A stretch of 64,000 nucleotides of DNA from an uncultured Candidatus Rokubacteria bacterium (lineage in GTDB: Bacteria > Methylomirabilota > Methylomirabilia > Rokubacteriales > DASRDR01). Every line of letters starts with the position of its first letter. Within the stretch, counting starts at the first letter, position 1. The position numbers and the translations under genes are program-made. The stretch lies in contig CAWDVE010000010.1 in the NCBI GenBank assembly GCA_963805625.1, positions 2,080,001-2,144,000 on the forward strand, in the 5' to 3' direction. Positions 4,246 through 26,330 of the stretch are shown piece by piece. Below the pieces are notes generated by a model. The model was not told the origin of the DNA, did not search any database, and saw nothing but the letters and a program-made list of their open reading frames with translations.

Positions 4246-4577
4246 CGCAAGCCTCCTGCGGACCAAGCGGTCCGTGGGGCCCGGGCGATCGCCAACGTCG
4301 GTGCCAGGGCCGCGGTCGCCGTGCCGGACGGTCGGTCTGGTTCGGGATCGCCCGAAGACGACTGGGTGGCCCCTGTGGGCTCTGGCTCTGAACGCGACAG
4401 CAGGCTCCCGTCCTCTCGGCGGTCCTCGATGACCTCCAAGCCGGGGAGACCCCGGAGCACGTGCTCGATGGCCGCTCGAAGGCCACCCTGGCCGCGAGCC
4501 ACGATGAACAGGAGCCTCGACTTCGTCGCGCCTGGCTCTTCCCCGCCGCTACCCCGCTCTGGCTCTCGCTCGCTCAT
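4239..4577 (-). CDS. Small hypothetical protein of the LFIVAR...EVIxDRR type
   Basis: Strong SD (gaggagagg) before ATG 4577. Motif LLFIVAR..EVIEDRR, recalled as an expanded family in Rokubacteria. Confidence 0.65.
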   Translation of the reverse strand: MSEREPERGSGGEEPGATKSRLLFIVARGQGGLRAAIEHVLRGLPGLEVIEDRREDGSLLSRSEPEPTGATQSSSGDPEPDRPSGTATAALAPTLAIARAPRTAWSAGGLRC

Positions 4578-4630
4578 CGGCCTCTCCTCTCCCAGCGCCC
4601 AATTGATCGTCTGCGCACGCCTGACGAGAG

Positions 4631-4647
4631 AGCATCCGGGGTGCCAG
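4631..4647 (-). promoter_or_regulatory. Sigma-54 -24/-12 promoter
   Basis: The minus strand reads CTGGCACCCCGGATGCT (TGGCAC, GG-N10-GC), about 55 nt upstream of ATG 4577 and divergent from a sigma-54 activator gene. Confidence 0.65.
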
Positions 4648-4769
4648 CCGAGGACGGCAACCTTGACGCGCACTTACGAAGGCCCCCGATGGTGAATGGG
4701 TGGGGGACGCTGGTCGGGAACTGCGCAGTTTGCGCAAGACCGGCCCAGAGCGCAGTAGAATGCCGCGCA

Positions 4770-7700: not shown

Positions 7701-8891
7701 GATCTGCTGCTGCGCCGGGTGGCGTCGCTGCTCCCCCTCGGCCGGTTCCAGGAGGCCCATGATCGGCTGGTGGCGCCGGCGCTCCAGTCCGTCGCGCCGA
7801 CCGAGGCGGCGCTGGCGGGTCCCTATCACTACCTGCGGGCACGAGTCGCGAGCTTCCTCGGGGCGCACGACGAGGCAACGGAGAGCGCCGAGCGCGCGAT
7901 CGAGGCCGGCCGCCGCGCGGGAGACGTCCGCATGATGGGCAAGGCGCATGCGTTCCTCGCGCTGGACGCGGCGCTGGTCGGCCTGGGCCAGGCCGGCCTG
8001 GCGCACGGGCGCCAGGCGCTGGTGCTACTGGAGGGCACGGCGGAACAGGGGTGGCTCGGCGTGGCGCACTGGGCGATGGGGCTCGGGCAGGCGGCGACCG
8101 GCGAGTTTGCGCGGGCGCTCGACGCCGAGGCCCGAGCCCGGACGATCGCGACGGCCATCGGCGACCGTGCCCTCTTGGCCTCCGTTGCCTGGGCCACCGG
8201 CGCGATCCACGCTGCGGCCGGCGACGGGGCCGCGGCCATCCGTGCCTGCACGGAGAGCCTCGCGCAGGCGCCGGATCCCCTCCAGGCCGCCCTCGCCCGC
8301 GGCTGGCTGGGGTATGCCTACGTGGAACTCGGCGATCCCGCCGCGGCGATCCCGCTTCTGGAGCAGTCGACCCGGGAACTCGCGACGTTCCGGTTCGCAC
8401 GCCACGGCTGGTTCCGCGTGTTCCTGGCGGAGGCTTACCGGCAGAGCGGCCGGCTCTACGAGGCGTCGATGTCCGCGAAGGACGGACTGGCTGCCATGAC
8501 CGCGCCTCGGCTCGCGTACGGCACCGGCTGGGGACACAGGGTGCTCGGCCGCGTGGCGCAGGCCGAGCGCGCCTACGAGGCAGCTGAGGCGCATTTCCTG
8601 GCAGCGCATCGCACCTTTGATGCCATCGCGGCGCGGTACGAGCTGGCCCGAACCGAGCTGGACCTGGCCGCGCTCGCCGAGGCGCGCGGGGACCCTGGCC
8701 ACGCTGCGGCCTGTCGCGCCGCCGCGCAATCGCGACTCAACGACCTCGGGATCCGCCGGGATCCCGAGCTGGCCGACGCTCCGCTCGGGCAGCGCCCCCA
8801 GGATCTGACTGCGACTCGGCGTGAAGCGAGCCAAGCCGGTGACGCGGGCGCGAAACCGTTGCCGGGACCGCCGCAAGGCGAGACGCCGTGA
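4770..8891 (+). CDS. Sigma-54 enhancer-binding protein (AAA+, Fis HTH) fused to a degenerate cyclase-like domain, STAND-type ATPase and TPR repeats
   Basis: GETGTGK, FVDVNCAAIP, EMFGYERGAFTDA, IFLDEV, WPGNVRELAN, and HTH WNISRAALALGVARNTL. Second module FVGREAEL..GEPGAGKS..VVEDIQWID..GNPFFLEEL..YAFRHAL, then TPR-like helices. Likely start is ATG 4770. Confidence 0.9.
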   Translation: MDALTELVGDSPALVGVRTQVTRLLQRHRTTARLPPILIQGETGTGKGLLARLLHRESPRGSAPFVDVNCAAIPEALLEAEMFGYERGAFTDARQAKPGLFRAAHGGTIFLDEVALLPHGLQAKLLKAIEEQAVRRLGSTRTEPVDAWVLAATNTDLAAAVRQGGFRGDLYHRLAVVTFTLPPLRERAGDVLVLAEQFLARACADYRLPPKTLAADARAALLAYPWPGNVRELANVLERVALLSDTTTITGDMLGLKADSPTEGSVTGASPGGHRTLDAMVRDHLERVLEEHGWNISRAALALGVARNTLRARIAKHGLVLSSSPRHGPTRARGTAAPSGGPAASAMSGTAGSAPTAPANWESRRLAFLRAAMPMASDETGASLTYGAIDAVAGKVGAFAGQVIERSPEGLVAVFGLDLMEDPVGRAASAALAIGRLAERAGAGIRLGLHVGRCLVAAVRGRHEIDLDGKQSAWASLDGVLAGVGPGEVRASADTLPFLRGRFDLEAGGTADAAPAPVWVRGRASPDLRSRTPFVGREAELAFLKDRLAAARTGHGQMVGLVGEPGAGKSRLVAEFRAVVRREGLVYVEGACVPHGSAIPYLPMIDLLRGACGIGAGDAPDVMTEKVRTTLRLLRLDADETAAYLLPLLGLGEDPAPALAPDTVSPQARRGRTIAILREIALAASRRGSVVLVVEDIQWIDQTSEACLAALTDSLAGAPILALTTYRASYRPTWLERSYATQVALSALSTAQSSGLVRSLLPASAPDDVVRALVDRGDGNPFFLEELARAQRDDPSGQPTSVLPETVQEVLQLRIDRLPAGARRALLVAAVIGRRVPRWLLEAIWPGPDNLDSSLRTLVALEFLYERGGGEPAYAFRHALTHEVAYANPSASERQALHGVAAEALEERHRARLDPVLEHLARHYALSPRPDKAVHYLARFAEKAARTHAHTEAIGALDQALARVEELPEPERAPRRADLLLRRVASLLPLGRFQEAHDRLVAPALQSVAPTEAALAGPYHYLRARVASFLGAHDEATESAERAIEAGRRAGDVRMMGKAHAFLALDAALVGLGQAGLAHGRQALVLLEGTAEQGWLGVAHWAMGLGQAATGEFARALDAEARARTIATAIGDRALLASVAWATGAIHAAAGDGAAAIRACTESLAQAPDPLQAALARGWLGYAYVELGDPAAAIPLLEQSTRELATFRFARHGWFRVFLAEAYRQSGRLYEASMSAKDGLAAMTAPRLAYGTGWGHRVLGRVAQAERAYEAAEAHFLAAHRTFDAIAARYELARTELDLAALAEARGDPGHAAACRAAAQSRLNDLGIRRDPELADAPLGQRPQDLTATRREASQAGDAGAKPLPGPPQGETP

Positions 8892-10309
8892 GGCTCGGGC
8901 CGACGAGCGTCGCGGGCGTAGCGGTCCTGCTGCTGGCCGCGCTCGGCTACTGGACGCTGTCCGCGCCCGTCGAGGCGGCGCTCGTCTGGGTCGCCCTCCT
9001 GGTCCTCGTGGCCGTGCCCGCGCTGTACGTGGTGCGCGGTCGGCTTTCGGGGCCATCAGCGAGCTGGCGGCGGTGCGCGCACGACCTCGGTCTCGCGTTC
9101 GACGCCGAGCAGGAGCGGATCAGCGGCACCCTCCACGGGCTCGCCGTCACCGCGGGCCTGACCGAGGGCATCGAGGGTCGCACGTGGACACGCATCACCG
9201 TGGACGGCCGCGGCGCGATCCCGCCGGGCTTCGTGATCGGTGCCCGCGAACCGACGGCGCCGGACCGTTCGGTCGTGACCGGAGACGCCCGGTTCGACGC
9301 CGAGGTGAACGTGCAGGGGGATGAGGGGGTCGTCTTGGCCTGCCTCGACGCGCCGACGCGCGCCTGCATCCGTCGGGTCGTCGCCCTGGGTACCGAGCTC
9401 CGCGATGGTCGGCTGCTCCTCGAGACCCCCGGCGATATGCGCGGACGGGGCCAGCTCCGACAGAGCCTCCAGGACATGGCCCATGTCGGAGCGGCATTCG
9501 CCGGGGACCCCGAGCGCGTCTCAGAGCGACTGGGCTACAACGCTCGGACCGATCCGGTGCCCGCGGTGCGCCTGCGGAGTCTCGCCGTCCTTCAGCGGCG
9601 GGACCCGGGCGATTCCGTGCCGCGCGAGGCGAGCCGTGCCGCGCTGAGCGACGCGGATCCGGCCGTCCGGCTCGCCGCGGCCTCGTTCCTGGGGGACGAG
9701 GGCATGACGGTGCTCGCGGAGATGGTCGAGAACGGGCGTGTCGACGGGGGCCTCCGCGTCGAGGCGTTCGTGCTCCTGGTCGGTCGCCTGCCGACGAGCG
9801 ATGCCCTGGGGTGGCTAGAGCGGATGGCCGCGCTCCTCGAGGGTGTGGACCGAGCGGCAGCGGGACGTCTGGTGGAGGCGGTGGCCCGGCCCGTGGAGAC
9901 CACGGCCGAGACGGTGCTGCTGAAGGTCGCGTCACGCGGGGCGCGGCCGCTGCGGGTCGCCGCGGCCGATCTGCTCGGACGCGTGGGCAGCACCCAGGCT
10001 GTCCGGCCGCTCCTCGCGTGCGCGGACGCCGAGTCGGGCGAGCCCGCGGTGCGGGACGCCGCGCGCCGCGCGGTCGCCGGGATCCGGGCGCGGCTGGGCG
10101 CCGCCGAGGCAGGCCATGTCTCGCTCGCGGTCCACGCGGACGCCGCCGGGGGCGTGAGCGCCGCCGATCAACCGGGTGGCTTGAGCCTGGCCACGCCCGC
10201 GCCGATCGGGGTCGAGGCGCCGCCAGAGGACGGCCTCTCTGGAGCCGAAGAGGCCGACGACTGGGATTCGCCGGTTCGGAAGGCCGAGTCACGCCCGAGG
10301 GTGCCGTGA
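8888..10309 (+). CDS. Membrane-anchored HEAT-repeat protein (paralog A)
   Basis: Two N-terminal TM segments. HEAT-like motifs DPVPAVRLRSL, DADPAVRLAAA, LRVAAADLLGRVG. GTGA overlap with the upstream gene. Confidence 0.8.
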   Translation: MRLGPTSVAGVAVLLLAALGYWTLSAPVEAALVWVALLVLVAVPALYVVRGRLSGPSASWRRCAHDLGLAFDAEQERISGTLHGLAVTAGLTEGIEGRTWTRITVDGRGAIPPGFVIGAREPTAPDRSVVTGDARFDAEVNVQGDEGVVLACLDAPTRACIRRVVALGTELRDGRLLLETPGDMRGRGQLRQSLQDMAHVGAAFAGDPERVSERLGYNARTDPVPAVRLRSLAVLQRRDPGDSVPREASRAALSDADPAVRLAAASFLGDEGMTVLAEMVENGRVDGGLRVEAFVLLVGRLPTSDALGWLERMAALLEGVDRAAAGRLVEAVARPVETTAETVLLKVASRGARPLRVAAADLLGRVGSTQAVRPLLACADAESGEPAVRDAARRAVAGIRARLGAAEAGHVSLAVHADAAGGVSAADQPGGLSLATPAPIGVEAPPEDGLSGAEEADDWDSPVRKAESRPRVP

Positions 10310-10379
10310 CCAGGACCCGGCTCCGGAGGCCGGAGCTGCACGAACTTGGCAGCACCATGCGCTCCCGCGGGAGGTCACC

Positions 10380-13300
10380 GTGGAGACCCTGATCCTGGTT
10401 CTCATTCTCCTGGGCATCGCCATGCTAGTCGGACATAAGACCTCAAGCCTCCGCCGCCAGTCCGGGACGGATCAGTCCGACCGTGAGGCGGAGCAGGCCG
10501 GGGGTGACGAGCGGGGCGTATTGACGCGGGATCTTTCGGAGCTGGAGACGGCGGAGCGTCAGCTCGTCCGCCTCCAGGACGCCGGGCTCCTTCCCGCGGA
10601 CATCGTGCAGCGCGTCCGCGCGGCCATCGAACAGCGCCGGCGTCAGCTCCGGGAGACGCCCTCCGACGAGGTGGCCGCTCGGCCGGCCCCCGCCGCCATG
10701 TCCTCGCCGCCGCCCGCTCCGGCCCCGAAGCCGCCTCCGCCACCACCCGTCTGGAAGCGGCTCGAGACCCTGCTCGCGGCGTGCGCGACCGAGCAGGCGG
10801 TGCGACGACTTTCCGAGCGAGACCAGCAGCGCGCTCTGAGCTGGCACGGCCTCTGCGGGTCCAACGAGCTGGCCATGTTGAGCCACCCGGCCCAGCTGGC
10901 GTTAGCCCGGCTCCTCAGCCAGTCGAATCAGGCCGAGAGGGCGCTGGCCGTCTACCGGCGCCTTCTCGCGGGTGGTGTCATGGACCCGGGGACCGCGGGC
11001 ATCGCGATGGAGGCTGGTCGTCTTGCAGCGAGCGAGGGGCGGAACACAGATGCGGTGGAGCTTCTCCGGCGGGCCTTGCGCGGCGATCCCATTCCTGACG
11101 TGCGTCGCGAGGCCGAGGCGCTCCTCTATACACTTGAGGGCCCCGCGCCCGCCCCGGCGCCACCCGCCCCGCCGCCGGCGCCCGCTCCGGCCGTCAGGGT
11201 GGGGCCGCCCGCCGAGAGCCCCGCATCGTCCGAGATCCCGACCGTGGCGCCGCCCGCTCGCGTGCCGGCGCAGCCCGCGTCCTCCCCGGTCGCGCGACCG
11301 CGTCCAGCCGTTCCGGCCCCGGTGGCTCCGAGTGTAGCGCGCCCGGCCCGGCCCCGCTTTACCCCGCCGCGTGTGCAGCGGCCGCAGCGGTCATTCCGGG
11401 AGCTCCTGGCGATGCTGATGGAAGAGCCCTACATCTTCTGGGGCGAGTTCGCCGCGGGCCTCCTCATCGTCGGGTTCGCGACCGGCCTGGCGATCAATGT
11501 CCGCAACACGCTGGGCGAGCACGTCCCGTACTTTCCGTTCGTGGTCCTGGCGGGCATCACCGCCTCGGCGTTCGGGCTGGGTCGGTTGAGCCTCGGACGC
11601 TGGGGTCTCGAGGCGACCGGGCACGGGCTCCTCGTGATCGGTCTCCTCCTGGTGCCGCTGAACTTCCTGGTGCTCACCGCGCTCTTCCCGAGCCGCTGGG
11701 GCGTCCCCGTGGACGCGGCCGCCGCCGCCGTCGCCATCGGCGTGCTCGGGTGGCTGTCCGCGCGCGCCGTGGGGCGGCTCGTGGCCGAGCGGTGGCCGGC
11801 GGTCACGCTCGCCCTCGTTGGCGGGTCGGCCGGCCAGCTCCCGGCACCGTGGCTCCTGGACGCCGACGCGTCGGTCTGGTGGTACTCCGTCGTCGGCGCG
11901 TTGCCGCTCGCCTGCTATCTGGCGGGGGCCGCTCGGTTCCTCCCCTCCTCGCTCCTCGGCGGTCCGAGCCGCGAACCGCTGGGGCCGGCGCGCGTGCGGA
12001 CGATCCTCGGGTTCCTGGCCGCGAGCGCCTTCGCGCTGGTCGTCGGGCTCGGATCGATCGTGGCGCGGGGCAACATCGCGCGGGCGATGGAAGGCGTGGC
12101 GCCGCTCGTCGCGCTCGCCGCGCTTCCACTGTTGCTCGGCGGCCTCGTCGTGCACCGGGGCCTGGCCGACTCGCGGGACCTCGCGGCGTGGCGAACCATC
12201 GGGACGGCCACGATGCTCTCGGCCATCGGGATGATGGTCATCGCCCTGGGCCTCGCCTGGCCCGCGCCCGCCTCGGTGGTCGCGACGGCAGCCGTGAACT
12301 TCACGGTGCTCACGCTCGTGGCCGTGCGCGGAGGCCTGCCGCTGGCACACGCCGCGGCCCTGCCCTGCGGGGCCTTGGCCTCTCTGATGGCCTGGCACTG
12401 GGTGCGCGGCCACCTCGCGGTCCCGCCCGAGGCGCTGGGCGGGGCAGTCCTGGGCGCGCTGGTGTCCGCCGAGAGCGGAACCGTCCTCTTCGGCTTGTTC
12501 CTGGTGATGAGCCTCGTCGCGGAACGGGGGTTCGGCGACCGCCATTCCGATGACCGCCGCTGGTACGACGGCGCCGCGCTGGCCGCCGCGCTCGCGAGCC
12601 TGCTGCTCGTCACCGTGCGAGGCGCAAGCGGTCCCGGACACGCGGCCCTCGTCTACGCGGGCACCGGGGCTCGCGTCCTCGACCTCGCCCGATCCTGGCG
12701 CCGCCGCGACGCCGGTCTCGCGGGCCTCGTCCTGCTCGGTGCGTCGACGCTCTGGGCGCTTCGATGGGGGACGGGGGCTCTCACGAGCTGGTGGGGCACA
12801 GCCGTCGCCGTGGAAGCGCTCCTGATGGGGTGGGCGGCGGTCGAGCTGAGCCGGCCCTCTGACGGCGAGCGGGGCGTGAGCACGTGGCGGCGTGCGCTGG
12901 CGGAGGTGTATGCGTCGCCGCTTCGCTGGTGCGCCTTCGGCTTGAGCGCTGTCGCGGCGGCGCTCGCTGTGGCGGCCGGCAGTGCCGCTTCCGACGGGGG
13001 GTGGTCCCTGGCGCATGTCGTCACCGGTGCCGCGCTGGTTGGCCTCTATATCCGGCTCGCGTTGGCGACCGTGGACCTCCTTGTTGCCCGCGTCGCGGGG
13101 GCGCTCGCCATCGGAACCGTCGTCGCCGCAGCGGGGTGGATCGCGGGCCTCGTGGGCGTCCCGGTCCAGGCCTCCGTGGCGCTGGGGGTCGCCGTGGCAG
13201 GACTGATCCTGCTCGGGGGGGCGCGGCTCGCCGGAGTTGAAGGGACAAGCCGCGGGTCGGCGGCGGCCCCAGTGATGCCGATCATGCCAACCATCGGGGA

Positions 13301-16300
13301 GACGGCGGAAGCCGCCTCGCTGCTTGCGTTGCTCCTCACCGTCTCGGCGCCCACGCTCGGGATCTCCTGGCTCCACCCGGCCACCGGCCTGGCGCTGACG
13401 GCGACCGCCTTCCTCCTCGCGCGGACGCGAGGGAGCCTGCTGACCGGCGCGGGCTCCGCGCTCGGGCTTGGCACGATCGTCCACGTGCTAGCGCTTCAGC
13501 TGGGGGACCGAGTCGTCCCCCAATCGTGGTGCGCCGCCTTGCTGACGCACGCGACGCTGTCCGTCGCCGCCGTCCTGGCGGTCCGGAGGACACGCGGCCC
13601 GGAGCATGAGGACGAGCTCGCCGCGCCCCTCCGCGCCGGGGCGGTGGTGACCTCGGCCCTCGCCGCGCTGCTGGCGTTCGGCGGCACCTGGAGCGCGACC
13701 GTCTACTTGCTGTGGCTCGCGGCGGTGTGGCTGGCCCTCGCGTGATGGAGTACTGGCCGTTGGCGTTCACCGGCTTTCAGGCCGCTCTGACGGCGGCCGT
13801 GTTCCGAGGGGTCGCTGCGTGGCTCGGAAGTCCGGTCGTGTTCGATCCGGTCGCGGACGTCCTCGCACCAGGCCGTTTCCCCGCCTACGTGATCGCGCTC
13901 GGGACGCTGAGTCTCGGGTGGGCCGCGCTGCGGATCCCGTTCGCACGCAGGGGGCGCATGCCCGGTCTCCTGGATCCCGGGTGGCCCCGTGTCGACCGGG
14001 TCGTGCTGGCGGCGCTGGTGGTCGGCCAGCTCGTGGTGGCGCTGGTTGCGGTCTCGGCGGGCGTGGACGCTGAGCTGATGCCTGGCGGGCGATCCGGCGT
14101 GGCACCCGGCGGGGCGGCCGGGGCGGCGCTCCTCGTCGTGACGCTCGCGCTCCTCGCCGCGCTCTGGGAACGATGGCGCGCCGCGGACGTGGCGGGGGCG
14201 CTGGTCCTCGGGCTGACGGGCGCCCTGCTCGCCGCCGGCCGTCACGCGCCGGATCTCGCGGCCGCGTCCGCGCTCCGCTGGAGCCTGGCGCTGTTCGTCC
14301 TGGCGGTCTCCGTTCTCGTGTGGCTGCGCGGGCCGCTCGGTCGGCTCGCGCACGGTGTGGGCGCGCGGATCGAGGAGGGCCATCCCGACCGCCTCGCCTG
14401 GCTCGCCCGGAGCTTCCTCCTGTGGGCCGGGGTCGTGCCGACGATTGCCCTCACGGCCTGGGCCGCGCTGTCGAGCGTCGCCGTCGGGCGCCCGGCGGGC
14501 CCGGCCCCGGGATCGTTCTTCGCCGCCATCGGGCCGACCGTGAGCGGTCTCGCCCCGCTCGCCGTGCTCGTGGTGGCCCTGGTCGGCCATGCGCTGCGGG
14601 AGCGTGCGCCGCGCTATGCGTTCGGGGCGGGGCTGGTCGCGAACCTGGCCGTCACCGGCGGCTACGCGCTGGACGTCACCCTCCGCGGTCAGGCGTTCGA
14701 CGCGGCGGTGTCGCTCTACCTCCTCCAGCTCGCCGCCGGGGTCGCCGCCACGTGGGCCTTGTTGTGGACGGGCGGGCGTGCCTGGCTGACGACCGACCGT
14801 GACGTGGCCGTCCCCACGCTCCTGGGTGTCCAGGTGGCGCTTCCGGTGATGATCCAGACCGCGGTCCTGGCGTGGACCGCTGCCCTCGCGGGGCTCCACC
14901 CTGCAGGGGCGTCGACGGTCACCTACCTCGGCAGCGTGTCGACGCCCACCGCGTGGGTCGTGCTCGGACTGACGATGGCCGCGACGGCCTGGTTCTGCCG
15001 GGTGACCAAAGAGCGCCACGCCATCGATCTCCTGTGTCTCGCCGGCCTCGGAGTCCCCGTCGTGGCCGCCGGCATGGCCGCGCCTCAGGGCGACTGGTGG
15101 GCCTTTCGAGTCCTGATGCTCGGGTGGGCGGGCTACACGCCGCTCGTGGCGGCTCTGACCTGGGCCGCCGCTGCCCGGAGCGCGCGCGCGGCAGAGACCG
15201 GGGAGCTGGCCCGGGTGGCCGAGACGTGGGTGCGCGTGGCAGGTGTGCTGGCGGGCGTGCTGGCTCTCCGCGCGACGCTGGACGGCGGGCAACACGCGTG
15301 GGCCGCCGTGGCGATCGTCATCGCGGGGTCGGGGAGCGCGCTGCTCGGCGTGTGGTGGCGGGCGCAGGGCTGGGCGTTCGCCGCGGCGCTGGCCGGCAAT
15401 CTGGCCGCGTCGCTGCTCGTGTGGCACGTCTTCGTCGGCCGGCCCCTGGGCTCGTGGTGGGTCGAGCTGGTGCAGGCCAACGTGGTCGCATGCTCGGGCC
15501 TTGCCCTAGTGTGGTTCAGCATCCGCGCCGTGCTGGCGCGCCGGGGAGCGCTGCGGCCGCTCCGGGGAGGACCCCTCGAGCTGCTCGTCGGGCTCGGTGT
15601 CGCGGGCCAAACCCTCCTCGTGGCATGGGCGGTCGTGCAACTCCTCGACGTCACCGGCATGCTGGGCGGACTGGGCCGCGCGGGGAGCCTGCTCGGCTGG
15701 GCGGCGTGGTCGATCTCCGTGGTCGCGGCACTCCGCTATGCGCGCGAGGCGCGCCGTGGCGACGCGGTCGCCGCCGCGGCTGCGATGGGGATCTCCCTCG
15801 GGGCGATGGTTGCGGCGACGGTAGCCCGGTTGGATCCCGCGGGGGACGCCGCCCACCACGTGGTCACCCTGCTGTGGACGGCGGTCGGCCTCCTGCTGCT
15901 GATGCCTGGCTGGCCCGCTCGCGTCGGTTCCCTCGTCGGCCTGCCGGCGCCCGTGCCTCCGAGCGAGCGGGCGGCGCTCCGTGCGGGCAGCGGGACGATC
16001 GCCGCGCTCCTGGTGGCACTCGCGTGGCGCGCCGCGGTGCAAGGGGGAGATAACGGGCTCTGGTCGGTGGCGGCCGCGGTTGCCGCGAGCGTGGTGGTGG
16101 GCGCGCTGGCGGTCCGCATTGGCTCGGTGATCGCGACCTACGTGTCCGGGCTGCTCCTCGCGCTCGCGGGAGCGCTCGCGTGGTGGGCACAGCCTCCTCT
16201 CACGCCGGCGGGGTTCATCTACGCTCAGGTCTTCTCGCTGAGCCTCGGCTCCAGCGTCTGGTCGGGTATCGCGGCGGCCCGCCGCGGGCGAAGGGACGCC

Positions 16301-18232
16301 ATGGACGATGGTACGCCCGCCGGCTTTCCGTCCGTCGCGGCGGTCGCCGCGCTGGGGATGCTTGCCATGGTGACCACCGCGGCCCTCGGCGCCGCCCTGA
16401 CCGTGTCACCGTCCCTCGCTGGCCAGAGTGCGCTGCTCGGCTGGACAGCTGTGGTGGCCGCGGGCATCGCGCTCGCCCTCGGCGCCTGGGAGCCCGGAGC
16501 GCGCGCGGTGCAGCTGGGCCTGTACGCGTGGGGGCTCGTCGCGATCGGTCTCGGGCTTTCGGCGCGTGCACCGGCGTCGTCGGCCACCGCGGGTTCCGGC
16601 GTCGTCGTGGCCGGACTCGGCGCGTCCCTGCCGGCCAGCTTCGCGGGTCCCCTCGTCCACGACGGAGTCCTGGCGCTGGCCGGCTACGTCCTGCTGGTGG
16701 CGGCCGCCTGGCGGCTTGCCCCGCGGTTCGGCTCCGCGCGTCGGGCGCTGGGACTCCCGGCCCCCGCCGAGGGGTGGGCCGAGACGTGGCAGCCTGCCGC
16801 TCAGAGAATCGTCGGCGGCGTGGCCGTCGTCCTGAGCGTATGGGTCGCCCTCATGCTGCCCCGAGGCGTCGACCGGCTCGCGGCGCCGCTGGCCGCGGCT
16901 GCGCTGGTCGGCGCCGCCGTCCTCGCAGCCGGCCGTTTGGCTGCCCCGGGGCGCGTGGGAGCCCAGGACCTGACGCTGGCGCTCGCGGTGCTGGCGCTGG
17001 CCGAGCTCGGATGGGCGGCGCTCGATCCGGCCGCGCGGACGGCGTGGCTCGATCGGGGGGCCGTGCTCGTCGGCGCTGTGTCGCTCGGCGCGCTGGCGTA
17101 TGGCCTGCTGGCCCGCGCCCCGAGGGACGCCGCCCTGGGCTGGGAGACCCGCGCGCGCCGCTTCGGTCCGCGCCTCGGCACCCTGGCCGTGGCGCTCGCG
17201 GCGGGCGTCGTGAGCCAGGAGATGATGGCGTTCACGCCCGGGACCGCGGCGGCCATGAGCCTGTCCGGGATCGCGGCGATGGCCGGTGGCTTGGCCGCGC
17301 TGGCCGTAGCGCTCATCTTGTTCGCGGTTGCCCACGGTCCCGACACCTTCGGGCTCGAAGGGCGGTCCCGCACCGTGTACGTGTACGCGGCCGAGGCCAT
17401 CGTCCTGATGACGTTCCTCCATATCCGGCTTGCGTTGCCCGAGCTCTTCGTCTCCGGCCTGATCGCCCGGCACTGGATGTGGGCCACCCTCGGGCTCGCC
17501 TACATCGCGACGGGGCTCGGCGAGATCGTGACGCGGCGCGGCTCGCGGATCGTCGGCGAGGCCCTGGATCGGACCGCGCTCGTGCTCCCGCTCCTGCCGG
17601 ACGTCGCGTTCTGGCTCTTGCCGGATCGGAACTACGTCGCCTACGCCGGGATCTGGCTGCTGCAGGCGGCCCTCTACGGCGGCCTCGCCGCGGCGCGCGA
17701 CTCGAGGGGCCTCGCGATGCTGGGCGCCTCCGCCGCGAACGTCGGCGTGTGGGTCATCCTCGGCCATCACGGGGTCGAGTTCCTGCGGCATCCGCAGATG
17801 TGGCTGATCCCCCTCGCCGTCAACGTCCTGCTGGCCGGCCATCTGAACCGCGACCGGCTGGGGCGGCCGCAGCGGGCAGCGCTCAACTATGCGGGTCTGA
17901 GCCTCTTGTACCTGTCGTCGGCCGCGGATCTGTTCATCACCGGCCTCGGCAACTCGACGGTCCTGCCGCTCGCGCTAGCTGCCTTGTCGATGCTGGGCAT
18001 CGTGGTGGGGATCGTCCTGCGCGTCCGCGCGTTCCTCTTCCAGGGCATGACGTTCCTTGCCTTCGTCGTGGTCACGATGATCGTGCACGCGGTCTGGGCT
18101 CGCGAGCAGCAGTGGCTCATGTGGGTGTCGGGCATCGGGCTCGGGGCGGCCGCCTTCACCGTGTTCGCGGTCTTCAGGAAGTACCGGGAGGAAGTGCTCC
18201 GGCTCTACGAGGAGGTCCAGAGCTGGAGCTGA
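10380..18232 (+). CDS. Giant polytopic membrane protein (about 2617 aa if the break at 13743 is a 1-nt deletion; otherwise two coupled ORFs, 10380-13745 and 13745-18232)
   Basis: N-terminal TM, TPR-like helical region and Pro-rich linker, then WGEFAAGLLIVG and dozens of hydrophobic helices ending HPQMWLIP..LRVRAFLF. Junction gcgTGATGgag. One added G gives the continuous WLALAVMEYWPLAF. Confidence 0.8.
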
Positions 18233-18324
18233 CGCGGCGTGGCAGGCTGTACCGGGCGGAAGGCTGGCCCGGAGTGAGGGCGCGGGGGTTAGAACGCTCG
18301 GCCTAAGACGGAGGCAGCCCGACA

Positions 18325-18693
18325 ATGGTAGCCTCGGCCAACTTCATCGACGCGTTGTTCGACTTTTTGGACGAATTTTTCGACGAGCTCCGGGACTGGC
18401 AGAAGGCCACGCCACATTGGCAGCGTGCCGCGCGCCGCGCTGCTGCGCGGCTTGGGTTCCGCGTCTCGACAGACGGAGAGGCGATCAGCGGGGGGGTCAG
18501 AGGGTTTCAGGTGACGCTCCGTCGTGTAGGGAGCGTTGTCAACCGACCTGATGCGCATAGGCTCATCATCACAGTGGATGGCGGGGGCGCGATTCCCCGG
18601 GACCTCGCTCTCGGGACCGAAAGCGGGGATCCCGAGTTCTTCAGTGGGATGAGTGGCGTGCCCACGGACACCGACGGGGGTGCCGACACCTGA
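18325..18693 (+). CDS. Short paralog (B) of the N-terminal soluble domain of the HEAT-repeat proteins, possibly truncated
   Basis: WQRAA..ARLGF..ISGGVRGFQVT..ITVDGGGAIP aligns with WRRCAHDLGL..ISGTLHGLAVT..ITVDGRGAIP of 8888-10309. SD ggagg upstream. Confidence 0.6.
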   Translation: MVASANFIDALFDFLDEFFDELRDWQKATPHWQRAARRAAARLGFRVSTDGEAISGGVRGFQVTLRRVGSVVNRPDAHRLIITVDGGGAIPRDLALGTESGDPEFFSGMSGVPTDTDGGADT

Positions 18694-18950
18694 TCTGGCG
18701 TCGGGCTGTCGGGCGTCACCCTGGAGCTGCAGCCGACGCCCGCCTGAGGGTTCGCACTGGAGCAAGCCTGACCGAGGCCTACCCGGGTGGCTCAGAGGAC
18801 GGGGCGGAGGCCCTCGGGAGAGTTCGCCAGTGCGGCGGCGGTTGGGGGGTAGAATCGGGCCCGGCTGGGATGGGGTGAGATTCCCGCGAGGCAGGGTCCG
18901 ACGGCGGCCAGGGGCCCGGAGGTGCACGGGCCCGGGCGGAGGGAGGCGCG

Positions 18951-19724
18951 ATGCTGCTCAGACGCATCTCGAACCTGATCCGAGGGTTCCTCACCCTGTT
19001 CGTCTCGGGGGTCGAGAAGCACAGCCCCGAGGCGCTGCTGGAGATCGAGAAGGAGAACCTCCGCAAGCAGATCGCGCGGTACAACAACGGTCTTGCCTCG
19101 CACGCCGGCCTCTGCGAGGGGCTCATGACGCGGATCGGGAAGCTCGAGGCCGAGGATCGGGACCTGCGGGCCCGGACCACCGTCAACCTGAAGGCGGGGA
19201 ACCGCGACGCGGCCGGGCAGTACGCGCTCAGGCTCCAGACGATCGCGCGGGAGCTGGAGGAGAGCCGGCGGCAGCTGGAGCAGGCCGAGCAGACGTACCG
19301 CAACCTCCTCGAAGCGCGCGATGTGGCGGTGGCGGCTGCTCGCGCGAAGGTCGAGGCGCTCAAGCAATCCATCAGCGACCTCAAGGTCAAGCGCGCGCTG
19401 GCAGAGCTGAGCGAGATGGCGAGCGGCATGGTCACCTCGATGGGGAGCGCGAGCGACACGCTCGATCGGCTGCACACGATGGTCGAGGACGAGCGTCAGA
19501 AGGCGGCCGGGCGTGTGCGGGTCGCGCGGGACACACTCAGCATGGCAGACGTCCACCTGAAGGAGGCCGAGCAGCGGGCGCTGGCCGAGCAGGCCCTGGC
19601 CGACTTCGCGGCGCGCGAGGGGATCGCGCTGCCGGCGGCCTCACCGGCGGCGGCCTCGCCGGCGGCGCCCGCGAAGACGATGGGGCCGGCACCCACGCGC
19701 GAGGCGCCCCAGACCCAGGGGTGA
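18951..19724 (+). CDS. PspA/IM30 (Vipp1, ESCRT-III superfamily) protein
   Basis: Amphipathic N-terminus MLLRRISNLIRGFL, xPEALLE hinge, long coiled coils, LKAGNRDAA, DTLDRLHTMVEDER. SD ggagggagg. Confidence 0.88.
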   Translation: MLLRRISNLIRGFLTLFVSGVEKHSPEALLEIEKENLRKQIARYNNGLASHAGLCEGLMTRIGKLEAEDRDLRARTTVNLKAGNRDAAGQYALRLQTIARELEESRRQLEQAEQTYRNLLEARDVAVAAARAKVEALKQSISDLKVKRALAELSEMASGMVTSMGSASDTLDRLHTMVEDERQKAAGRVRVARDTLSMADVHLKEAEQRALAEQALADFAAREGIALPAASPAAASPAAPAKTMGPAPTREAPQTQG

Positions 19725-19758
19725 GCCCGGACGATCATCACCACGATCGGATGACCCC

Positions 19759-21507
19759 GTGAGCGCTGACCGGCGTTCGGGGCGTGCCCCGAGCCCCGGC
19801 CTGCCCGGCTGGGCCGTGGACCTCGTCACCCTCTACGAGAGCCACGCTACCAACCACTTCATCCTCCACGGCAACGTCCACGACCGGTTCCTCCTTCCGC
19901 TGGGAGACGGGGCCACGCTCGGCAGCCTGGCCGATTTCCTGCTCCGGGTCCTGATGCCGCGCTTCGACGTCGTCCTCAGCTACGACCTCGGCAACGGCAT
20001 CCGCGTGGAGAAGGGCGAGGAGCTCTTCGCCCGGTGGCCGTACGTCAAGGAGACCCCGCAGCTTCCGCGGAGCCCCCGGGAGGCGGTCGAGGTCCTGACG
20101 CGCTACCTGCGCTACTGCGCCAACCTCGGACGCCTCGGCCACGATCAGTCGCAGGTGGGCGTGATCGTGCACGGCGCGGATCTGGTCGCGCCCCCGCCAG
20201 CCGGCGCGCTCCACTACGACCTCAACGCGCTCGCCGTCCTCATGCGCGAGTGGAGCGCGAGCACCGAGCTCCTCCAGCACCCGCTTGCCACGTTCCTCCT
20301 CGCGGAGAACCTGAATGACCTTCACCCGCTCCTGGTCCACAACCCCCGCGCGGCGCGGGTCCTGGTTCCGCTCCCGTCGGCCGACGAGCTCACGCGCGGG
20401 CTCGAGGTCCTGGCAGAGCACTATCCGGTGGCGCAGGGCGAGTACGCCGGCCGCGCCGGGGACCTGGCGCAGCAGCTCGCCGGGGCGAGCCTCGGCGCTG
20501 TCGAGAGCCTGCTGAAGGTCAAGGAGCACGCGAAGGAGCCGCTCGCGCCCGCGGACCTCGTGGCGCTCAAGCGCCGGCTCGTCGAGGACGACACCCAGGG
20601 ACTCGTGGAGTTCGTCCAGTCGGACAAGACCCTCGACGCCCTCGAGGGGCTCGAGCGGATCAAGGCGTCGCTGCGCCAGGACCTGGCGCTCTGGCGACGG
20701 GGTGACCTCCAGGCCCTGCCGATGGGCTACCTCTTCTGCGGTCCGGTCGGCACGGGCAAGACCTTCCTGGTGGAGTGCCTCGCCGGCGAGGCGGGCGTGC
20801 CCGTGGTCAAGCTGAAGAACTTCCGGGACAAGTGGGTGGGCAGCACCGAGAGCAACCTCGAGAAGATCTTCCGGCTGCTCCACGCCCTCGGCCGGTGCTT
20901 CGTCTTCGTGGACGAGGCCGACCAGGCCCTCGGCAAGCGCGAGGCGGGGCCGGGCGACTCGGGGCTCTCGGGGCGCGTCTACTCGATGATCGCCGCCGAG
21001 ATGGGCAACCGGCAGAATCGCGGTCGGATCGTCTGGATCCTCGCGTCGAGCCGCCCCGACCTGATCGAGGTCGATCTCAAGCGCCCCGGCCGGATCGACG
21101 TCAAGGTGCCGATCTTCCCGACCTCGACGCCGGAGGAGGGCTTCGGCCTCCTCCGCGCCCTCTGCGCCCGGCGCGGCCTCGCGATTCCGCCGACGGCCCT
21201 CGAGGGCCTCCGGGACCGCATGCCGCCTCTCCTCACGGCGGGGGCGGCGGAGAGCCTCGCCGTGTGGCTCTACCGGGTGGTCCGCACGGAGGGACGGGAG
21301 CCTCTCGAGACGCTCCGCACGCGGCTCGCCGACTACCAGAGCCCCGTCCCTCCGGATGTGATGGACGCCCAGCTCGAGCTCGCGATCCGGGAGGCGAGCG
21401 ATCTCGAGTTCGTGCCGCCGTTCTTCCGCGAGCGGCGCTGGCGCGCAGGCGGGAACGGACCAGTGGGCTCGGCGGAGGTCCGGCCCGGCCGGCCAGGCCG
21501 CTCCTAG
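19759..21507 (+). CDS. Classical AAA+ ATPase with a degenerate N-terminal AAA-like domain
   Basis: Walker A GPVGTGKT, pore loop DKWVGSTESN, Walker B FVFVDEAD, SRH SSRPDLIEVDLKRPGRID. N-terminal HFILHGNVHD segment. Confidence 0.92.
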   Translation: MSADRRSGRAPSPGLPGWAVDLVTLYESHATNHFILHGNVHDRFLLPLGDGATLGSLADFLLRVLMPRFDVVLSYDLGNGIRVEKGEELFARWPYVKETPQLPRSPREAVEVLTRYLRYCANLGRLGHDQSQVGVIVHGADLVAPPPAGALHYDLNALAVLMREWSASTELLQHPLATFLLAENLNDLHPLLVHNPRAARVLVPLPSADELTRGLEVLAEHYPVAQGEYAGRAGDLAQQLAGASLGAVESLLKVKEHAKEPLAPADLVALKRRLVEDDTQGLVEFVQSDKTLDALEGLERIKASLRQDLALWRRGDLQALPMGYLFCGPVGTGKTFLVECLAGEAGVPVVKLKNFRDKWVGSTESNLEKIFRLLHALGRCFVFVDEADQALGKREAGPGDSGLSGRVYSMIAAEMGNRQNRGRIVWILASSRPDLIEVDLKRPGRIDVKVPIFPTSTPEEGFGLLRALCARRGLAIPPTALEGLRDRMPPLLTAGAAESLAVWLYRVVRTEGREPLETLRTRLADYQSPVPPDVMDAQLELAIREASDLEFVPPFFRERRWRAGGNGPVGSAEVRPGRPGRS

Positions 21508-21517
21508 CCGGCGGCCC

Positions 21518-23216
21518 ATGTCCGGGTGGGCGATCGATCTCGGCAACAGCCACACGCGCGTCGCGCGGTGGGATCCCAAGCAGGGCGGCCCGCGCCTCCT
21601 GGAGCTGCCCGCGATCTGTCGGAAGCCGGGCGAGGAAGAGCCGCTCGCCGCGCCCCGGCTCATCCCGAGCGCGACCGACGTGGTCGAGCATCTCGATCTC
21701 CAGGCCCGGATCGGCCGCTGGCCCTTCATCGCGCAGCGCTGGTTCCTCGGACGGCTCGCCTACATCGGGCGCGAGGCGCTCGAGCGGAGCGCGGCGCTCG
21801 GGCGCCCGACGTTCGTCCCGAACTTCAAGCTCTACCTGGACCGCGAGGCCACGCGGCCGCTGGCGCGCGCGGGCGGGCGCGCCTACACGGCGCGCGACGT
21901 CGCCCGGCTCTTCGTGCGGGAGCTCCTGGCGGAGATCGAGCGCGAGACCGGCGAGCGCATCCGCGACGTCGTGCTGACGGCGCCCGTCGATGCATACGAG
22001 ACGTACCGGGCGGAGCTCTCGCGGATCGCGGGGAGTCTCGGCATCCGCCGGACGCGCTTCGTCGACGAGCCCGTGGCGGCCGCCCTCGGCTACGGCCTGG
22101 GCCTCGACAAGGCGCGCGTCGTGCTCGTCGTGGACTTCGGCGGGGGGAATTCGCACCTGGCCCTGGTCGGGTTCTCGGCGCGGGAGACCGAGGCGGGACG
22201 GGCGGAGGTCCTCGCGAAGGTCGGGCGGCTCCTCGGCGGGAACGACGTCAACCGGCTGGTGCTGGCCGAGCTCTGCCGGCGGCTCGAGTACCCGCTCGAC
22301 GAGTCGGGCGACGACGACGAGGCGGCGTTCTGGCAGCGGCTCATGCTCGCCGAGGCCTGCCGCGTCAAGGAGGCGGTCTACTTCAATCCGACGGCCACGT
22401 TCCACGCCACGCCGCCCGCGTACCTCCGCCGGGCCCCGGTCCTCGCGCGCGACGCGAAGCCCTGGGTCGAGTTCACCCGCGCCGACCTCGACGGCCTCCT
22501 CGAGCGGCACGGGGTCTACCGCCTGATCGGCGAGTGCCTCGAGGAGGTCCTGAAGGAAGGGGCGGCCCGCGGTGTCCGCGAGGACGACATCGAGGACGTC
22601 CTGATGGTGGGCGGCTCGACGCTCCTGCCGCGCGTCTACCCGTTCTTCGAGGAGCGCTTCGGCCGCGACCGCGTGCGCGCCTGGCAGCCCTTCGAGGCCG
22701 GCGTCTACGGCGCCTGCGCGCTTCGCGGCGGGACAGCTCAGCCACGCCGACTTCATCGTCCACGACTACGCGTTCGTGACCTACGACGCCAAGACCCAGG
22801 AGAAGGAGTACACGGTCGTCGTGCCCCGCGGGACGCGCTTCCCGACGGCGCCCGACTTCTGGAAGCGGCAGTTCGTGCCGACCTGCGCCCTCGGCGAGCC
22901 GGAGACGCTCTTCAAGCTCGTCATCTGCGAGATCGGCCGGGGCGTGGACGGCGATCGTCGGTTCGTCTGGGACCGGGCCGGCGAGGTCCACAAGGTGGAG
23001 CACGGGAGCGGCCGCGCCGACGCCGTGGTCGTGCCGCTCAACGAGGCGAATCCCGCCCTCGGCTACCTCGAGCCGCCGCACCCGCCGAGCGACCGACGGC
23101 CGCGACTCGAGATCGCGTTCGGCGTGAACGCGGAGCGCTGGCTCTGCGCCACGGTCCAGGACCTCCGCACCCGGCGCGTGCTCATGCAGGAGGCGCCCGT
23201 GGTGCGGCTGCTGTAG
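21518..23216 (+). CDS. Atypical Hsp70-family protein (about 565 aa, frameshift near 22720)
   Basis: AIDLGNSHT, VVLTAP, FVDEPVAAALGYG, VVDFGGG, LGGNDV, LMVGGST. Removing one base at gcc tgc gcg c ttc gives ACAFAAGQLSHADFIVHDYAFVTYD, which continues into ORF 22776-23216 (VVPRGTRFPT..LEIAFGVNAERWLCATVQDLRT). Confidence 0.88.
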
Positions 23217-23224
23217 CAACGCCG

Positions 23225-24702
23225 ATGGGCGACGGTTGGAGCGGCAGCCTTCTGCCGGACCTTTTTCGGTTTGCCGGATTCCTGGCACTGGTGGTGACGG
23301 TCGCGCTTCTCGTCTGGTACTTGTGGCTCTTGTGGCGGCAAGCCCGCGGGCGGGAGTTGCGAGCCCTGGCCCGGGACCTCGGGCTGACGTTTCGGTGGAG
23401 GGGCTCGGTGCCGCTCCTGACGGGCCAGTGGGACGGGTTCCGGGTCTCGTGGCAATTCGGGCGGGATACCGCGTTGGAGGTCCTGGACGTGGTCCTGGTC
23501 GAGGAATCGGAACGGGACCGGATGAGAGGTGGTGGACGGAGTGGAGGGTCGATGGGCAGGGCATTGTCCCGCACGAACTCGTCCTGCGCTCCCGCTTGAT
23601 GCCGAGCAGCGTCGCATGGTCCGCCGGCGACCCGGTGCTCGGCGTGGCCGCGCTGGACAGCCAGACTCGGAGCCTGCTCGCCGCGCTCCAGACGTCCGGC
23701 GTCTCGGTTGCAATCACCGCCGGGAAGGCTCTCGCTCGGACCCCTCACCTGGTCGACGACCAGCGGGCGGTGCGGCAAACATTCACGCACCTCGTGCGCC
23801 TGGTGCGGGGCCTCGCCTTCGAGCCCGCTGACGCACCCCAGCGGCTCGCCCGCCACGCGCATGAGGATCCTGATGGCGAGTGGCGCCTTCGAAGCCTCCT
23901 GTGCCTTCAGGATTCGTTTCCGGGCACCCCCGCTGCACGGGAGGCGAGCCGGATGGCGGCGACTGCGGGCCAGCCGGCACCGATGCGGCTCTCGGGAGCG
24001 GCGTTCCTCGGGGCCGAGGGCGTGCCGTTCCTCGAGGCACTGGCCGCGGATCGATCCGTCGACAGGGACGTCCGTCGTGCGGCGGCTCTCCACGGGGCGC
24101 TGGCGAGCCCCGTGCCCGATGCCCTGCGCCTGATCGCCCGATTCCGGTGGTTCTGGCGGGACTGGGACGTTCCCCAAGCCCTTGCCGATCGCGTCGCGGC
24201 GGTCACCGATGGCGCGCGTGAGCCCGTGCTGCTGGAGCTCGTGGCGGCCGAGGCGCCAAGTCTCCAGGTGGCGGCGGTGCGGGCACTCGCCCGGATCGGG
24301 ACGCGGGACGCGGTGGAGGCCCTCCAGGCCTGCGCTAGGCGCACGAACTCGGCCGGGGAGCTTCCCCGAGCGGCGCGCGAGGCAATCGCAGCGATTCAGG
24401 CCCGTCTCGGTGACGTGGCCGGACGCTTGTCGGTGGCCGTCTCTGACGACGGAATCGGTGGCTTGACGGCGGCCGACCAAGCGCAGGCCGGTGCTCTCTC
24501 GCCTGTCCCAGGCTCCACCGGGTGCTATCAGCCCTCCCACCGACCCACCACCCCCGGACGCGGGCCGCGAGACGCGACGGGGATCGGAGTGGACCCGCTC
24601 CTGACTCCTCCTCCTGGCCAATTCGTTCCCGATCGTGGGCGGCCCTTCAGCGCAACGCGACGCTGTCGGCGTCGACCTCGGCGCGAGCCGGTTGCTCCAT
24701 GA
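23225..24702 (+). CDS. Membrane-anchored HEAT-repeat protein (paralog C), frameshifted at about 23460-23525
   Basis: ATG 23225, 8 nt after the Hsp70 stop, gives a TM plus LARDLGL..LTGQWDGFRV. It continues in the 23236 frame with WRVDGQGIVP, HEAT motifs and AIAAIQARLG..GRLSVA, similar to paralog A. The 3' end is uncertain. Confidence 0.75.
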
Positions 24703-25991: not shown

Positions 25992-26329
25992 TTCCCGCCC
26001 AGCCTGGTTAGTAAGCGGTCCATGAACACCGCGGACTCCGGGAATCTGGCCTTCTCGGTCTCGAACTCCCGGCGCGCCTCGTCCAGTCGTCCGATCTGGT
26101 AGTAGAGATAGCCGAGGTGCGCGTGAAATCCGGGCGGCACCGGTTTGTTCTCCGAGCGCGCCTTCTGGTAGTCCTGCTCGAGGAGCTCGATCTGCCGCTC
26201 GGGAGGCACCGCCCCCGGTTTGGCATACGTGGCGTAGACGACGGCCTCGTACTGGCCCCAGGAGTACAGGGTCGGGGCGGCGCACCCCGTGAGCATCACC
26301 AGCACGACCACCAGGCCCGTGTGAGTCAT
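25988..26329 (-). CDS. DUF4810-family TPR-like lipoprotein
   Basis: LTGC lipobox, LYSWGQYE, VPPGFHAHLGYLY, FETEKARFPES. Confidence 0.88.
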   Translation of the reverse strand: MTHTGLVVVLVMLTGCAAPTLYSWGQYEAVVYATYAKPGAVPPERQIELLEQDYQKARSENKPVPPGFHAHLGYLYYQIGRLDEARREFETEKARFPESAVFMDRLLTRLGGK

Positions 26330-26330
26330 G

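Follow-up and report, generated by a model that had tools for sequence, protein, structure and literature searches.

A PspA/AAA+ ATPase pair and a lidless Hsp70/TM-HEAT pair joined in an accessory island of a Candidatus Rokubacteria genome

Do a PspA-family protein, an AAA+ ATPase and an Hsp70 that are encoded side by side belong to one membrane machine, or are they neighbours that came together from different places? The question is raised by a 64,000-nucleotide stretch of DNA (the window) from an uncultured Candidatus Rokubacteria bacterium (assembly GCA_963805625.1, contig CAWDVE010000010.1), in which a run of co-directional genes at 8888..24702, identified from open reading frame lists, third-position GC content and Pfam matches, encodes these three proteins together with transmembrane HEAT-repeat (TM-HEAT) proteins and a giant membrane protein. 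The problem has a wider setting, since the portion of Liu et al. 2021 available to us leaves the disassembly of bacterial PspA/Vipp1 undecided (PMC8281802), and the accessible part of a 2025 review states that a Vps4-like ATPase appears to be absent in bacteria (PMC7619361). An original prediction made from the window alone had read the locus as a conserved, self-contained seven-gene machine. On balance we lean, with moderate confidence, towards a looser arrangement in which an accessory island joins two separately conserved modules, a PspA-ATPase pair and an Hsp70-TM-HEAT pair, that probably both act in one envelope-stress pathway, neither depending on the other, with the giant protein as a probable passenger. 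The genes are as follows.

8888..10309, + strand: TM-HEAT protein A (HEAT-A), 473 residues; HEAT_2 at 35.3 bits, over the Pfam cut-off
10380..18232, + strand: giant polytopic membrane protein, about 2617 residues; a crude hydropathy count gives about 46 hydrophobic segments, residues 173-237 form a weak TPR-like patch, and the frame breaks at about 13743-13745
18325..18693, + strand: HEAT-B, 122 residues, a TM-HEAT gene remnant; matches positions 22-91 of the family profile only
18951..19724, + strand: PspA/Vipp1-family (ESCRT-III superfamily) protein, 257 residues; N-terminal amphipathic segment, then C-terminal helix, flexible linker and KTMGP motif
19759..21507, + strand: Cdc48/VAT-like classical AAA+ ATPase, 582 residues; Pfam AAA at 82.3 bits, degenerate N-terminal AAA-like half and intact C-terminal ATPase
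21518..23216, + strand: lidless Hsp70-family protein (565 residues in the intact copy P0001); HSP70 at 85.8 bits, with nucleotide-binding domain, linker and beta substrate-binding domain; extra base at 22721
23225..24702, + strand: TM-HEAT protein C (HEAT-C), a paralog of A (35% over 288 residues) with the same tail repeats; frame switch at about 23460-23640

The seven genes and the tight core spacing that had been noted (gaps of 34, 10 and 8 nucleotides between pspA, the ATPase gene, the Hsp70 gene and HEAT-C) are present, although three of the genes are frame-broken, the short HEAT gene is a remnant, and an eighth co-directional gene overlaps the first. Upstream of the core the genes lie 70, 92 and 257 nucleotides apart, so that a single transcript for the whole cluster is no more than possible; a promoter scan returns no sigma70-like site, and 2 terminator-like sites against 3.7 expected, and is uninformative on this point. 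As anticipated, the Pfam scan finds no dnaJ, grpE or pspBC gene inside the cluster. Genes for dnaK and dnaJ sit elsewhere in the genome, where four DnaJ domains outside the cluster score over the cut-off.

The assignment of the gene at 18951 to the ESCRT-III superfamily holds. Positions 1-196 of its profile (helices 0-5) match Vipp1 at E 2.4e-14, and 49 of 50 aligned relatives match Pfam PspA_IM30 at E<=1e-3, the window protein itself scoring 31.8 bits, just below the cut-off of 33.9. It is the sole PspA-family match in the genome, and by analogy with its family it would polymerise on and remodel membranes. The C-terminal half of the adjoining ATPase is intact, with a Walker A motif (GPVGTGKT), a Walker B motif (FVDEAD), a pore loop (KWVG) and an RPGR arginine finger. 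Its N-terminal half aligns weakly to the C-terminal one (E 0.006, probability 3%); the positions of Walker B and of the finger correspond in this alignment, and the Walker motifs themselves are lost. The best solved relatives of the ATPase profile are VAT, Cdc48 and p97, with the VAT match beginning at profile position 192, and the enzyme has a single active ring, unlike the N domain and two active rings of those proteins. Vps4 is absent from the best 60 of the 262 solved relatives. Moreover, Pfam gives no MIT domain match at E<=0.05, the N-terminal 280 residues being of another kind, and the protein scores 33.5 bits against CdvC (cut-off 650), compared to 67 bits against CDC48 (cut-off 802) and 63 against FtsH. 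The MIT-less N-terminus, the CdvC score below those of CDC48 and FtsH, and the identity of the best solved relatives rule out an ortholog of Vps4. A second two-domain AAA+ gene lies elsewhere in the genome (G000:C10:106574-108334, + strand) and matches the ATPase family profile at E 6e-38.

A genome scan for relatives of the ATPase confirmed at least 494 among 599 candidates, and the best 80 loci were kept. PspA adjoins the ATPase in 65 of these 80, across several phyla, and 10 of the 15 loci without PspA have less than 2 kb of upstream sequence. In the other five (L037, L047, L050, L083 and L087) the ATPase is a close homolog and PspA is missing from an upstream sequence of 2 kb or more. The neighbourhood that had been proposed as a Vps4-like disassembly pair is therefore a conserved pair, although its ATPase is Cdc48/VAT-like and without an MIT domain. 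The pair is known: the available part of Ravi et al. 2024 describes PspA beside an "inactive classical AAA + classical AAA" gene pair, with a predicted functional role (PMC11237479). In two further genomes, G906 and G1139, a distant member of the ATPase family (L131 and L132) lies among other genes with no PspA in 1.5-kb flanks, as part of a different system.

The PspA proteins that are linked to these ATPases share an architecture at their C-terminus, which runs from a helix (with the sequence ALADFAAxEG in the closest clade) through a variable linker to a short end motif. In 55 of 63 AAA-linked PspAs the final 30 residues contain the pattern [KR][TSAQ][MIL][GS], a K[TS][MI]GP-type motif, G245 and P246 of the tail are conserved at 90% or more, and the PspA of the planctomycete G444, which is only 25% identical to that of the window, ends in EKTIGP. 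Of 40 genomes without the ATPase, 6 supplied 8 PspA-family proteins for comparison, none of which has the motif; this control is small (n=8) and confounded with PspA clade. A literature search, with most subscription journals outside its reach, found this tail motif nowhere described. We know of no solved complex of the ATPase-PspA-tail kind. When residues 10-562 of the ATPase were folded with residues 165-257 of PspA, the predicted complex scored 0.56 against 0.00 for the best control, with runs sharing at least 41% of contacts and a predicted local distance difference test score (pLDDT) of at least 55 for the partner. The mark for a positive result is reached by 116 of 157 solved pairs and 2 of 215 mismatched pairs, and scores at 0.60 or under among pairs reaching it belong to 18 of the 157 solved pairs and to both mismatches. 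The structure prediction called for between the PspA C-terminus and the ATPase thus lends weak support to the binding of the tail. We consider it likely that the ATPase recycles PspA.

The constant partner of the lidless Hsp70 is the TM-HEAT family and not PspA. A TM-HEAT gene is adjacent to the Hsp70 gene or within 3 kb of it in 11 of 11 other loci, which bears out the prediction that the Hsp70 and HEAT proteins belong together. The Hsp70 belongs to a subfamily of proteins of about 565 residues, with 1302 of 8000 scored sequences matching at E<=1e-30; the best 120 of these were taken as homologs, several of which carry Myxococcota names. The 11 loci come from a survey of genome samples and metagenome contigs, in which the subfamily is rare, being found in 3 of 401 Planctomycetota and 5 of 301 Acidobacteriota, in 2 of 56 and 2 of 151 genomes of the class samples (one new genome each), and in three metagenome loci, one with usable flanks; plasmids gave only one match, at 29%, and 32 pattern matches in viral contigs yielded none that was confirmed. 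In the model of the intact copy P0001 (pLDDT 88.7), a nucleotide-binding domain and linker are followed by an all-beta C-terminal domain whose final strand, at 553-563, is succeeded by no helical lid. Foldseek matches the model to DnaK/Hsp70 at E 1.7e-30, and the segment DFIVHD aligns with the DnaK linker. At about 19% identity to DnaK, and 80.7 bits against a DnaK cut-off of 648, the protein belongs to a separate subfamily. The catalytic residues K104, E184 and D206, presumably K70, E171 and D194 in DnaK numbering, are invariant in 117 of 117 sequences. The phosphate loops of the window protein read GNSHT and GGGNSH, compared to GTTN[TS] and GGGT in most homologs, at positions that we take to be T11/T12 and T199 of DnaK; because Asn replaces Thr in both loops, its ATP hydrolysis may be weak.

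The TM-HEAT protein HEAT-A has two N-terminal hydrophobic helices, an alpha/beta domain (54-209), HEAT repeats (about 205-407) and a tail that is disordered and carries three G-x-[LV]-S repeats, in a model with pLDDT 83.6. Foldseek returned no match for this model at E<=0.001, and the ESM Atlas yielded only clusters that are unnamed or annotated as HEAT_2. Comparison with VIA aligned the alpha/beta domain with the mycobacterial protein TtfA (6t84; Z 11.3, root-mean-square deviation 4.5 over 148 residues) and with type III chaperones (SycN/YscB 1xkp_B, Z 8.5, root-mean-square deviation 2.6; SycT, Z 7.8), identity for the fold matches being 10-14%. Tails with 2-4 repeats of the form G-x-[LVIM]-[ST] are present in 25 of 25 TM-HEAT copies, and the tail is the best-conserved region of the family though it is disordered (0.56, compared to 0.47 and 0.38). 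The copies are otherwise highly diverged, with a median identity of 27% compared to 58% among the Hsp70s. Arrays of TM-HEAT genes stand directly behind the Hsp70 gene in some loci, with up to 12 open reading frames in L102/L103 (G491:C36) and up to 8 in L115 (G822:C23). Hsp70 beta domains bind short hydrophobic extended motifs, and for this reason the tail repeats of the TM-HEAT proteins likely tether the Hsp70 to the membrane. The literature search described above found no account of the Hsp70-TM-HEAT module or of its link to PspA. HEAT-B, which had been taken for a short HEAT paralog, contains neither a HEAT repeat nor a membrane segment, and in a contig of a related strain that runs from the giant gene to pspA its place is taken by 185 other bases.

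Contigs from public sequencing runs of related soil strains (X1-X5, X7 and X10) were compared with the window in order to judge the broken frames. The assembly has one extra base in the Hsp70 gene, at 22721, that is missing from contigs of X1, X4 and X10 and of X1, X2, X5 and X7, amounting to six public runs from three studies, and a near-identical contig of X3 has 415 letters over 416 bases. In addition, P0001 is 95% identical and has no frame break, and both halves of the broken gene are matched by 118 of 120 homologs. The possibility that the Hsp70 gene is a pseudogene is excluded by P0001 and by the run contigs without the extra base. The break in the giant gene, which reads TGATG, raised the possibility of two coupled genes; this is ruled out by the homolog P0121, which reads through it, and by 100 of 120 homologs that match both halves as a single chain. 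In an X4 contig 615 letters cover 614 bases, the single gap falling at this position. From these sequence comparisons, the frame breaks in the Hsp70 and giant genes look like assembly errors. The frame switch in HEAT-C, between about 23460 and 23640, is bridged by none of the contigs listed from the runs. Contigs of X1, X2 and X7 diverge from the window at 23227, right after the HEAT-C start codon (23225-23227), which suggests that another gene, like an exchangeable cassette, stands behind the Hsp70 gene in related strains.

Are the two modules linked? The original prediction expected PspA, AAA+, Hsp70 and HEAT genes to be syntenic in other genomes, and this order does recur in G444, where pspA, the ATPase gene, a DUF433/DUF5615 pair, the Hsp70 gene and a TM-HEAT gene follow one another, the four shared genes standing in the order of the window. 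The G444 PspA and ATPase (25% and 36% identical to the window proteins) belong to other clades in both trees, and its AAA and Hsp70 proteins both fall outside the window clades (FastTree, 35 and 68 rows, taking in one third of the closest ATPase loci). Moreover, the ATPase family (E<=1e-30) is present in 9 of 10 Hsp70 genomes compared to 35 of 200 and 30 of 150 sampled genomes (65/350), centres excluded; at E<=1e-70 the counts are 5 of 10 and 40 of 344, with a Fisher p of 0.004 before any correction for kinship or genome size. What is new here is the junction of the PspA-ATPase and Hsp70-TM-HEAT modules, seen twice, together with the enriched co-occurrence.

A number of observations weigh against a shared pathway for the two modules. 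This Hsp70, the TM-HEAT family and the giant gene are found in none of the 80 closest ATPase loci, 64 of which have at least 3 kb of downstream sequence (a 27% DnaK-like gene is found in 2 of the 80), and the Hsp70 is encoded nowhere in the 50 genomes of these loci that were searched; a self-contained seven-gene machine is therefore not conserved. No PspA-AAA pair is found in the fetched flanks of 9 of 10 other Hsp70 genomes, a PspA was seen beside no more than 3 of the 9 ATPases that co-occur with the Hsp70, the loci being short, and G906 and G1139 have the distant AAA type with other neighbours. Some of the counted co-occurrence is owed to kinship and genome size. G729, which both trees place as the sister of G444, likewise has the modules apart. 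We considered whether the G729 contigs C400 and C392 might be neighbours and so form a third linked locus, and rejected this, the ends having no overlap and another gene, which we take from its motifs to be queG-like, lying upstream of the Hsp70 gene. A further partner is relevant here. Related PspA-ATPase loci have a protein with two transmembrane segments and a coiled coil (2-TM coiled-coil partner) in 46 of 64 cases by profile count, and a vWA gene in 18; neither occurs anywhere in the window's genome, and the 2-TM partner is lacking in G444 and kept in G729. That it is lacking at both linked loci counts in favour of the link. This partner is missing in 18 of the 64 loci and bare PspA-AAA pairs are common, so that no anchor is required. 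The idea of TM-HEAT as a required substitute for it finds no support, as the inspected loci without the partner have no TM-HEAT either. To these points are to be added the weak homology of the ATPase N-terminal half to AAA domains, the confounded tail control and the altered phosphate loops of the Hsp70. The functional link rests on two loci, and is suggestive and non-obligate.

The best surviving alternative, which we regard as unlikely though not lightly dismissed, is that chance brought together, in one island, accessory cassettes with no functional tie to one another, namely the PspA-AAA pair, the Hsp70-TM-HEAT pair and the giant gene. The region is indeed an accessory island specific to its lineage: a search of 250 further genomes in the phylum gives no PspA match at E<=1e-20, the Hsp70 has none at E<=1e-60 in 110 relatives, and the ATPase domain finds only matches of about 30% in 40 relatives. 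Two of five same-genus genomes match positions 1-1156 of the window at 97-98%, and among the matches listed none of the five has a DNA match between about 8.7 and 24.8 kb. The absence of the Hsp70 from the ATPase loci and their genomes, the separation of the modules in G729 and eight further genomes, and the toxin-antitoxin-like nature of the DUF433/DUF5615 pair that sits between the modules in G444 favour chance as well. On the other hand, the four-gene order arose in G444 from other clades, in one of ten genomes, and random placement within a few kb is unlikely; co-occurrence of the ATPase with the Hsp70 is enriched; TM-HEAT copies lie on both sides of the PspA-AAA pair in the window; and the order is kept in related strains of several soils, whose contigs span activator to HEAT-A, giant gene to pspA and AAA to Hsp70.

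It is improbable that all seven genes form one integrated machine, with the PspA polymer as the substrate of both ATPases and its recruitment left to the HEAT and giant proteins. The core is co-directional and tightly packed, an X10 contig of a related strain joins the giant gene directly to pspA, four of the genes are repeated in G444, and HSP70 is reported to remodel Vipp1 oligomers in the accessible part of PMC13051332. Nevertheless, one HEAT gene is a remnant, the modules mostly occur apart, and the evidence on the giant protein, the supposed recruitment platform, points elsewhere. As a query, it gave no match in G369, G491 or G444. It is found in 5 of 200 sampled Planctomycetota, the group to which most members of its family are assigned, and the ATPase is present in 1 of those 5, compared to a background of 34 of 195; the fetched flanks of five of five other giant-gene loci contain no PspA, ATPase or TM-HEAT gene. 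Neither co-occurrence nor neighbourhood supports a tie of the giant protein to either module, and as regards this protein the seven-gene machine is largely refuted; it is probably a passenger. Self-BLAST finds no internal repeats in it. Homologs in two closed Planctomycetota genomes (L169 and L170) stand a few kb from short genes that have, by eye, a pilin-like N-terminus. Least probable of all is a conflict or anti-phage system with TM-HEAT paralogs as fast-diverging sensors, the Hsp70 as an ATP-dependent switch and PspA-AAA as membrane effector, for although the divergence and arrays of the TM-HEAT copies, the cassette-like departure of three runs' contigs after the HEAT-C start codon, the patchy distribution and the occurrence of HSP70 genes in other conflict systems (in the available part of PMC7159879) are in its favour, PADLOC 2023 models match no more than generic domains (a 93-residue stretch of the AAA domain for IetA, the sigma54 domain for RtcR-type models), the cluster has no nuclease, TIR or other toxic effector, and the G444 neighbours are housekeeping genes.

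The gene immediately upstream may bear on regulation of the cluster.

4461..8891 (likely start near 4770), + strand: sigma54-type enhancer-binding AAA+ domain with a Fis-type helix-turn-helix, fused to a STAND-like NTPase and TPRs; Pfam Sigma54_activat at 195 bits, HTH_8, AAA_16 and TPR

This eighth co-directional gene shares 4 nucleotides with the start of HEAT-A and bears a GAFTDA loop; the genome also encodes three full-length paralogs of it at 45-46%, along with many partial copies. By analogy, it is possible that the activator regulates the cluster in parallel to the regulation of pspA by PspF. At the other end, a short stretch at about 24840-25240 matches other places of same-genus genomes at 82-90%, with many loose contig ends and no Pfam match, and is likely a repeat or insertion-sequence remnant at the right edge of the island. 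Beyond it, genes for GNA1162-like and CsgG-like lipoproteins (25347-27392, - strand) are common to three of five same-genus genomes at 80-84%.

How might two such modules serve one pathway? The gene identities, their motifs, the conservation of each pair, the four-gene order in G444 and the enriched co-occurrence are observed directly, and they can be assembled into the following model. By family analogy, PspA would polymerise on a stressed membrane. The dead N-terminal half of the ATPase ring would dock the C-terminal helix and K[TS][MI]GP motif of PspA, much as the Vps4 MIT domain does with ESCRT-III tails, and the active half would thread the chain and so pull PspA subunits from the membrane-bound polymer. 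In the second module, the GxLS repeats would occupy the peptide-binding groove of the lidless Hsp70 and tether it at the membrane, while the variable chaperone-fold and HEAT domains might choose client membrane proteins or complexes. Where both modules co-occur, the tethered Hsp70 could aid the assembly or dissolution of PspA, or of membrane complexes that PspA protects, in a manner comparable to chloroplast HSP70B on Vipp1. A bolder version, which we find doubtful, would make this a bacterial ESCRT-III with two ATP machines, in which a half-dead Cdc48-like ring reads a tail resembling an MIT-interacting motif (K[TS][MI]GP) in order to recycle the polymer. The second machine would be a lidless Hsp70 tethered by interchangeable chaperone-fold/HEAT adaptors that, in place of the coiled-coil anchor, choose the site of PspA assembly, and the pairing would have arisen at least twice.

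Comparison with known systems shows what the window shares with each. As in the loci of Ravi et al. 2024, so far as the available text goes, PspA lies directly beside a classical AAA+ protein, probably of two domains, whose N-terminal half is without Walker motifs, and the ESCRT-III/Vps4 analogy has already been proposed there (PMC11237479). Among loci related to that of the window are ones with the 2-TM coiled-coil, ABC and OmpA/solute-binding partners named in that work, whereas the window is without a TM-'Snf7', ABC or OmpA partner and has the lidless Hsp70 and TM-HEAT genes instead; DnaK does not appear in the main text of the paper nor Hsp70 in its supplement, and the passages at hand do not mention the PspA tail motif. 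Like ESCRT-III/Vps4 (CdvB/CdvC), the window has an ESCRT-III-fold polymer protein beside a classical AAA+ protein with intact pore loop, and a short C-terminal motif after a flexible linker; unlike that system, its ATPase has no MIT domain, a two-domain Cdc48/VAT-like layout and an RPGR finger. An Hsp70 beside a PspA/Vipp1 protein recalls chloroplast HSP70B-CDJ2-CGE1 on Vipp1, which, according to the accessible part of PMC13051332, involves a full DnaK with a J-protein and exchange factor, whereas the window Hsp70 is lidless, has no J-domain neighbour and is always with TM-HEAT. With DnaK itself the protein shares the nucleotide-binding domain, linker, beta substrate-binding domain and catalytic Lys/Glu/Asp, and differs in having neither the alpha-helical lid nor dnaJ/grpE neighbours. 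Finally, CesT/Tir-type chaperones are recurring PspA partners in the available part of Ravi et al. 2024 (PMC11237479), and the type-III-chaperone-like alpha/beta fold of the TM-HEAT proteins near PspA fits with this; what sets the window fold apart from those chaperones and TtfA is its fusion to a membrane anchor, to HEAT repeats and to a tail of repeats, and a shared fold shows no function.

The PspA-AAA pair would, on these grounds, be a predicted answer to how bacterial PspA/Vipp1 polymers come apart, and the conserved PspA tail motif provides a specific target for mutation in addressing that question. The lidless Hsp70 subfamily, unexplained so far, gains a constant partner in the TM-HEAT family. 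Moreover, the repeated linkage of Hsp70-TM-HEAT to PspA-AAA hints that bacteria have a counterpart to the action of HSP70B on Vipp1 in chloroplasts.

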